From: a virus
Lineage: Duplodnaviria; Heunggongvirae; Uroviricota; Caudoviricetes
DNA length: 10,738 bases
Virus record (IMG/VR): IMGVR_UViG_2693429518_000023
Reading direction: 5' to 3' (one strand)
Shown: positions 6,559 to 7,299 of the stretch, piece by piece
Position numbering within the stretch: the first letter of the stretch is position 1
Layout of the letters: each line of letters begins with the position of its first letter
The notes under the pieces: model-generated
Told to the model about the DNA's origin: nothing
Seen by the model: only the letters and a program-made list of their open reading frames with translations
The model's database searches: none
Translations under genes and position numbers: made by a program

Positions 6559-7299
6559 ATGAAAAACATTGCGGCAGTTGGGGTTCTTGAACGTATTCGC
6601 AGACTTGCACCACAGGGGGCGGTTCCACCGTACCGGACGGTGGAGGAGTGGCGGGAATGGCAACTTGCTGAAGGACGAAAACGCAGCGAGGAGATTAACC
6701 GCCTGAATCATCAGGTGCGGGTTGAAAAAATCCTGAACCGTGCGGGCATCTAGCCGCTTCACAGGAAGTGCTCATTCGGGAACTACCGGGTGCAGAACGA
6801 CGGTCAGCGCCATGCTCTGAGCCAGGCGAAATCCATTGCCGATGAATTGATGACCGGATGTACAAACTTCGTGTTCAGCGGTAAACCTGGTACCGGTAAA
6901 AATCACCTGGCAGCAGCGATTGGCAATCGGCTGATGGCGAAGGGGAGAAGCGTGATTATCGTCACCGTGTCCGATGTCATGAGCGTGTTGCATGACGGCT
7001 ACGACAACGGCCAGTCCGGGGAAAAATTTTTACAGGAGCTTTGTGGAGTTGACCTTCTGGTCCTTGATGAAATTGGCATGCAGCGGGATACGCGCAACGA
7101 GCAGGTCACGCTGAACCAGATAGTCGACCGCAGAACGGCTTCGATGCGTAGTGTCGGAATGCTGACGAACCTGAATCACGCAGCGATGAGCACACTCCTC
7201 GGAGATCGGGTGATGGACCGTATGACCATGAATGGTGGTCGTTGGGTGAATTTTAACTGGGAGAGCTGGCGGTCAAACGTTGGACGTCAGGGTATGTGA
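6559..7299 (+). pseudogene. DnaC-like helicase loader (lambda P position) with an in-frame amber (TAG) codon at 6751-6753
   Basis: A single frame encodes MKNIAAVG...NRAGI, then TAG, then PLHRKCSFGNYRV...FSGKPGTGKNHLAAAIG (Walker A)...LLVLDEIG (Walker B)...LGDRVMDRM..., colinear with E. coli DnaC (...NRSGIRPLHQNCSFENYRV...) for a full 246 codons. The stop sits where DnaC has Arg. Confidence 0.75.

Follow-up and report, generated by a model that had tools for sequence, protein, structure and literature searches.

DnaC-type helicase loaders are a known alternative to the lambda P protein in the lambdoid prophages Sp4, Sp10 and Sp12 of E. coli O157 Sakai (PMC2669165). A two-gene module annotated 'DNA replication protein O / DnaC-like helicase loader' is found in the Shigella phages POCJ13 and 75/02 Stx and in several Escherichia phages, and the equivalent of this module in the Rac prophage is ydaU/ydaV. 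In DnaC itself, residues 1-64 make up an N-terminal region with two helices, of which residues 8-11 and 31-44 contact the C-terminal domain of DnaB (PMC4705694). By analogy with DnaC, an intact phage loader would use its N-terminal helices to bind the DnaB of the host and its AAA+ domain to place DnaB on the phage origin.

Here we analyzed a loader gene of this type that is interrupted by an in-frame amber codon. The window, by which we mean the whole stretch of 10,738 bases under analysis, is 100% identical over its full length to a draft E. coli contig (L015; GCA_001284785.1, CYAH01000018.1). It covers the early region of a prophage of the lambdoid kind, carried by an E. coli genome of the O55:H7 type and integrated beside potC, which adjoins the element in complete genomes. 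The replication module of this prophage has two genes, the first for an O-like initiator (HTH_36) and the second for a DnaC-type helicase loader (Table 1), and in related phages the equivalents of the initiator gene go under the name 'DNA replication protein O' or 'primosomal protein I'. The loader gene lies directly 3´ of the initiator gene, as in the lambdoid phages that encode the full-length loaders with which it is colinear (Rac YdaV, those of Sakai Sp4, Sp10 and Sp12, POCJ13 gp17 and the Gifsy-1 DnaC homologue). The genes for a RelE/ParE-family toxin and a PaaA2/RelB-type antitoxin (3901-4372, minus strand) sit between ydfC and the repressor-like gene and are undamaged in every locus compared.

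Table 1. Features of the prophage early region, by position in the window.
Feature	Position	Strand	Remarks
Minus-strand content of the window		-	integrase, excisionase, ExoVIII-type exonuclease, ydfC, RelE/ParE toxin and antitoxin, small repressor-like gene
Integrase fragment	1..801	-	frameshift: 1-nt deletion at 196 compared with fS25a (L004), where the gene is intact
Truncated ExoVIII-type exonuclease	1101..2549	-	1.65-kb deletion, junction 2544/2545
YdaS-like regulator gene	from 4843	+	
YdaT-like gene	from 5142	+	
O-like replication initiator gene, intact	5590..6552	+	Pfam HTH_36; RefSeq WP_000095669.1, 320 aa
DnaC-type (IstB/AAA+) helicase-loader pseudogene (Q65amber)	6559..7299	+	DnaC and PF01695 matches; RefSeq pseudogene
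Residual N-terminal ORF, 64 aa, ATG start	6559..6753	+	from the ORF list
Premature amber TAG	6751..6753	+	C-to-T transition at 6751; ancestral CAG, Gln65
Residual C-terminal ORF, 169 aa, GTG start	6790..7299	+	same frame; AAA+ ATPase module
DUF1627, DUF977 and DUF551 genes	3´ of the DnaC-like gene	+	

The loader gene is one frame of 247 codons that ends in TGA, with the TAG at codon 65, in frame with the ATG at 6559, as its one internal stop. When translated with Gln at this codon, the read-through product matched E. coli DnaC (6qel_G) in a single stretch (residues 2-241 against 2-240, E=4.7e-74) and the Pfam family IstB_IS21 (PF01695) over residues 51-220 (70.9 bits, cut-off 24.1), with a Walker A motif (GKPGTGKN) and a Walker B motif (LLVLDEIG) aligned with those of DnaC. 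Like E. coli DnaC (PDB 6QEL/6QEM), it has a helical DnaB-binding region at its N-terminus and, after this, an AAA+ module that contains Walker A and B, and it is 90% identical in amino-acid sequence to gp17 of the Shigella phage POCJ13. The sequence-only reading that the two ORFs share one frame, are colinear with DnaC and are parted only by the TAG at codon 65 was thus borne out. Because Gln65 aligns to about R63 of DnaC, the protein is cut where the helicase-binding region gives way to the ATPase, and the 64-aa ORF is the counterpart of the N-terminal part of DnaC that contacts DnaB. The gene therefore has the sequence features of its family, with DnaB loading as the predicted function, but the TAG leaves the window copy with no unbroken frame for both domains in one polypeptide, which makes it a pseudogene derived from the DnaC/IstB family rather than a functional member.

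No natural gene boundary at codon 65 was found in orthologues from phages, complete genomes or contigs. A tblastn search of phages gave 131 records with one uninterrupted piece over at least 80% of the protein, among them POCJ13 (residues 1-246) and Gifsy-1 (residues 1-241), which span residue 65, and the loader is annotated as one gene in six phages. We rejected a naturally split two-gene loader, as the orthologues are single 246-aa ORFs that run through this position. The sequence-only reading had proposed comparing this codon among orthologues, and there it is CAG, within single genes and with no boundary. The closest comparison comes from O157:H7 PV15-279, whose module differs from the window at two of 3,989 aligned bases; the sole difference within the gene is a C at 6751, which gives CAG (Gln). 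A single C-to-T change at 6751 separates the window gene from the L002 copy, and the POCJ13 phage gene (91% identical) also has CAG at codon 65. By these alignments, the stop is a recent point mutation of CAG (Gln) to TAG. Deamination at a Dcm site was considered as the source of the C-to-T change and rejected, the local sequence being ATCCAGCCG and not CCWGG.

The frequency of the two alleles was determined with an 81-base probe centred on codon 65 in 5,426 complete E. coli genomes. The segment was present in 529 genomes, with an exact match to the CAG 81-mer in 438 of them and to the TAG 81-mer in only three (O55:H7 DEC5B, O55:H7 DEC5E and strain fS25a), so that the amber allele is rare as well as lineage-restricted. 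A larger protein collection has the uninterrupted protein of 246 aa on at least 1,000 contigs and the exact 64-aa N-terminal product on 33. DEC5E and fS25a each had two matching places, and in both genomes sequence identical to the window gene is annotated as a pseudogene, 'ATP-binding protein, internal stop' (RefSeq/PGAP). With TAG confined to these three of the 529 and the phage orthologues unbroken, there is no conservation of the in-frame stop among orthologues, which argues against programmed read-through.

The loader is not the only damaged gene of the element. Relative to the fS25a locus, which is the most intact carrier and still has an intact integrase and an intact exonuclease (823 aa), the window lacks 1.65 kb that encode the exonuclease N-terminus and contain the genes for DUF1482 and dicB (window 2544 maps to L004 14475 and window 2545 to L004 16127). 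In DEC5E, the exonuclease is annotated 'incomplete, missing N-terminus' and the integrase 'frameshifted', the latter being split into ORFs of 121 and 266 aa in L015. The window starts at the stop of this frameshift-derived 266-aa integrase fragment, and fS25a, L011 and L013 all have the DUF1482 and dicB genes. A 33-nt in-frame deletion at window 8879-8888, which shortens the protein of the DUF551 gene (8503..9114) by 11 residues, distinguishes the window from fS25a and from every other compared locus that reaches past 8888; it sits between short direct repeats (TCGTCAACCAA...). DEC5E and DEC5B also carry an IS3 insertion in the DUF977 region. In the regulatory region, 19 nt (AAACACTAAACTCGCAAAA) are missing at window 4822 that are present in all 12 other related loci compared. 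Position 4822 lies between the repeat at 4816-4832 and the ydaS-like start at 4843, and the deletion reduces from three to two the direct AAACACTAAAC repeats that lie a short way 5´ of the YdaS/Cro-like gene. These repeats look like operators (putative), and their reduction may alter the regulation of the immunity region. Further 3´ in the same prophage type and outside the window, a TerB-family gene is annotated with an 'internal stop' (L004 27898-28326, L006 16173-16601); this stop is shared by fS25a and O157:H7 PV15-279 and marks another pseudogene of the prophage family.

The amber is common to carriers that differ in these other lesions and by 2-7 SNPs over about 6 kb, as well as in their late-region modules (L016 and L017, for example, have different Q antiterminators). 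We also observed a second TAG haplotype (5433A, 7173A, which is synonymous, and 8341A) in L016, L017, L019 and L020, whose DNA past ~8.9 kb is only 98.3% identical. This pattern indicates mosaic recombination around the pseudogene. Given that the amber is shared across such different carriers, and that the integrase and exonuclease are still intact in those of the fS25a type, it predates the bulk of the other lesions and was later carried along by mosaic recombination; most parsimoniously, it arose once. The only extra change within the gene among carriers is a synonymous SNP at L205, present in some, and no further inactivating changes were found 3´ of the stop in the carriers compared; the allele is too young for relaxed selection to be demonstrated.

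The same gene has also been broken in another way. O26-type and other genomes carry an additional G in the G5 run at 6615-6619 (G5 to G6, codon ~20), with an exact match to the corresponding 82-mer in 109 of the 5,426 complete genomes. Copies with this lesion (L009, L010 460-1201) are annotated 'frameshifted', and their codon 65 is still CAG. The occurrence of this independent lesion in 109 genomes shows that loss of the loader is recurrent and evidently tolerated in resident prophages.

We consider it very probable that the window carries a nonsense-inactivated DnaC-type loader gene in a degrading prophage and that autonomous helicase loading has been lost, but several other explanations of the interrupted frame had to be weighed. 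The difference is a single base and could reflect a sequencing or assembly error; the same T is, however, present in three independent complete genomes, and contigs with the TAG allele, from drafts or from Logan, represent at least 10 different samples. This recurrence in independent assemblies refutes an error, whose probability we take to be next to nil. Translation might instead restart at GTG 6790 or later and yield an AAA+ ATPase that is truncated at its N-terminus and has either kept its function or gained a new one; the sequence-only reading had offered such a restart with a Met at 6790, where the codon is in fact GTG and not ATG. The 169-aa ORF keeps intact Walker A and B motifs, its GTG is 37 nt past the stop and within reach of reinitiation, and gene callers have called it on 407 contigs, a count that is explained by the commonness of the +G frameshift allele. 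We computed the anti-Shine-Dalgarno pairing with the 16S 3´ end for every in-frame start 3´ of the stop. Pairing was weak at GTG 6790 (-4.3 kcal/mol, against a strong -10.7 kcal/mol at the native ATG 6559) and about 0 at TTG 6847 and at the next in-frame ATG, 6850 (+0.3 for the latter); on this basis, with Shine-Dalgarno sequences weak or absent at all in-frame starts 3´ of the stop, restart was rejected. In addition, a product starting at codon 78 would be without residues 1-77, which include the DnaB-contacting region of DnaC (PMC4705694), and for this reason could not recruit the helicase, and the arrangement is not conserved, since nothing but the rare TAG or the +G frameshift creates it. 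Restart thus appears very unlikely, and neither fragment alone should load the helicase. The position of the stop at a domain boundary, together with the intact and strong native ribosome-binding site, makes it conceivable that carriers produce a free 64-residue DnaB-binding peptide that has been retained as an exapted fragment, an idea to which we give very little credence. If it were true, the peptide might interfere with helicase recruitment by superinfecting phages of the same loader type or, as an alternative benefit, damp the replication of co-resident prophages.

Two further explanations would let the full-length protein be made despite the amber. An amber suppressor tRNA from the host or a co-resident element might render the loader functional in its natural host, but no evidence for suppressor-dependence was found in the window, among the prophage tRNAs or in glnV and glnX of fS25a. 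The window has no tRNA genes, and the prophage has two beyond it, Met/Ile(CAT) and Arg(TCT), neither of which is a suppressor. A supE (CTA) version of glnV was constructed and searched for in all complete E. coli genomes, which gave 155 genomes with such an allele; the 60 listed among them have laboratory-strain names or K-12-like genome sizes. In the carrier fS25a, the tRNA-Gln cluster metT-leuW-glnUW-metU-glnVX was reached by walking from potC, and its four tRNA-Gln anticodons are TTG, TTG, CTG and CTG, so that both glnV and glnX are wild type and the supE allele that the sequence-only reading had suggested looking for is absent. This evidence is strong, if not exhaustive, as it covers supE in one carrier, fS25a. 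As the stop is also not conserved among orthologues, we regard dependence on a suppressor as extremely improbable. Finally, the allele could be a leaky hypomorph, in which near-cognate reading of UAG by tRNA-Gln would give a low level of exact wild-type protein that would suffice for some helicase loading. The ancestral residue is Gln, so insertion of Gln restores the wild type, and such insertion at UAG in suppressor-free E. coli is reported (Nilsson & Ryden-Aulin 2003, cited in PMC8954436). The ORF 3´ of the stop is, moreover, still undamaged. The base that follows the stop is C, and TAGC is a comparatively weak termination context. Against this explanation, basal read-through is typically well below 1%, DnaC-type loaders act stoichiometrically, with six per DnaB hexamer, and the tolerance of complete loss is shown by the independent +G frameshift allele in 109 genomes. 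The amber may leak slightly; a functionally relevant leak is unlikely, and we accordingly consider a hypomorph to be distinctly improbable. Of the three options raised by the sequence-only reading, nonsense inactivation of a replication gene is the one that stands, in line with the CAG of the orthologues, the rarity of TAG and the RefSeq pseudogene call, while neither restart at 6790 nor expression through amber suppression gained support.

Loss of the loader by nonsense mutation suggests the following course of events. The C-to-T change turned Gln65 into an amber exactly at the junction of the DnaB-binding region and the ATPase domain. Ribosomes that begin at the strong native start would thus stop after 64 residues, leaving full-length loader only as a trace of natural read-through. 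After induction, the O-like initiator would then be unable to recruit DnaB via the prophage's own loader, and the prophage presumably could not replicate autonomously. Loader loss would be one step in the decay to a grounded, cryptic element, and the allele would persist through neutrality or a mild benefit to the host. Both marks of a prophage pseudogene are present: the intact allele is one mutational step away, and the element has other inactivating lesions. Defective Sakai prophages can be amplified or packaged with the help of co-resident prophages (PMC2669165), and by analogy the window prophage could still be amplified or packaged with such help; fS25a-type prophages, whose integrase and exonuclease are intact, might likewise still be mobilised with help. 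For annotation, the two ORFs should be merged into one DnaC-type loader pseudogene and the prophage regarded as replication-defective on its own. The finding is already known in kind, and this lesion is already flagged as a pseudogene in RefSeq. It fits the general picture of lambdoid prophages that are grounded by loss of early functions and remain available for recombination and complementation in the prophage pool (PMC2669165).

Comparison with known systems places the amber allele among these losses. The window copy differs from DnaC and from the lambdoid loaders in having TAG at codon 65 and hence no full-length protein. A broken relative is the +G allele, which affects the same gene in the same module, inactivates it within the N-terminal region and is also annotated as a pseudogene; it is nevertheless an independent lesion and by far the commoner one (109 versus 3 complete genomes). 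With the amber of the O55:H7 lineage and the +G frameshift, this loader gene has suffered at least two independent knock-outs. Amber mutants of lambda O and P are replication-defective in sup0 hosts. Like them, the window allele has a nonsense codon in an initiator or loader gene, and the expected consequence is the same, namely no autonomous replication without a suppressor. Unlike the window allele, which is natural and affects a DnaC-type loader, the lambda ambers were selected in the laboratory, and the P-type loader is unrelated.
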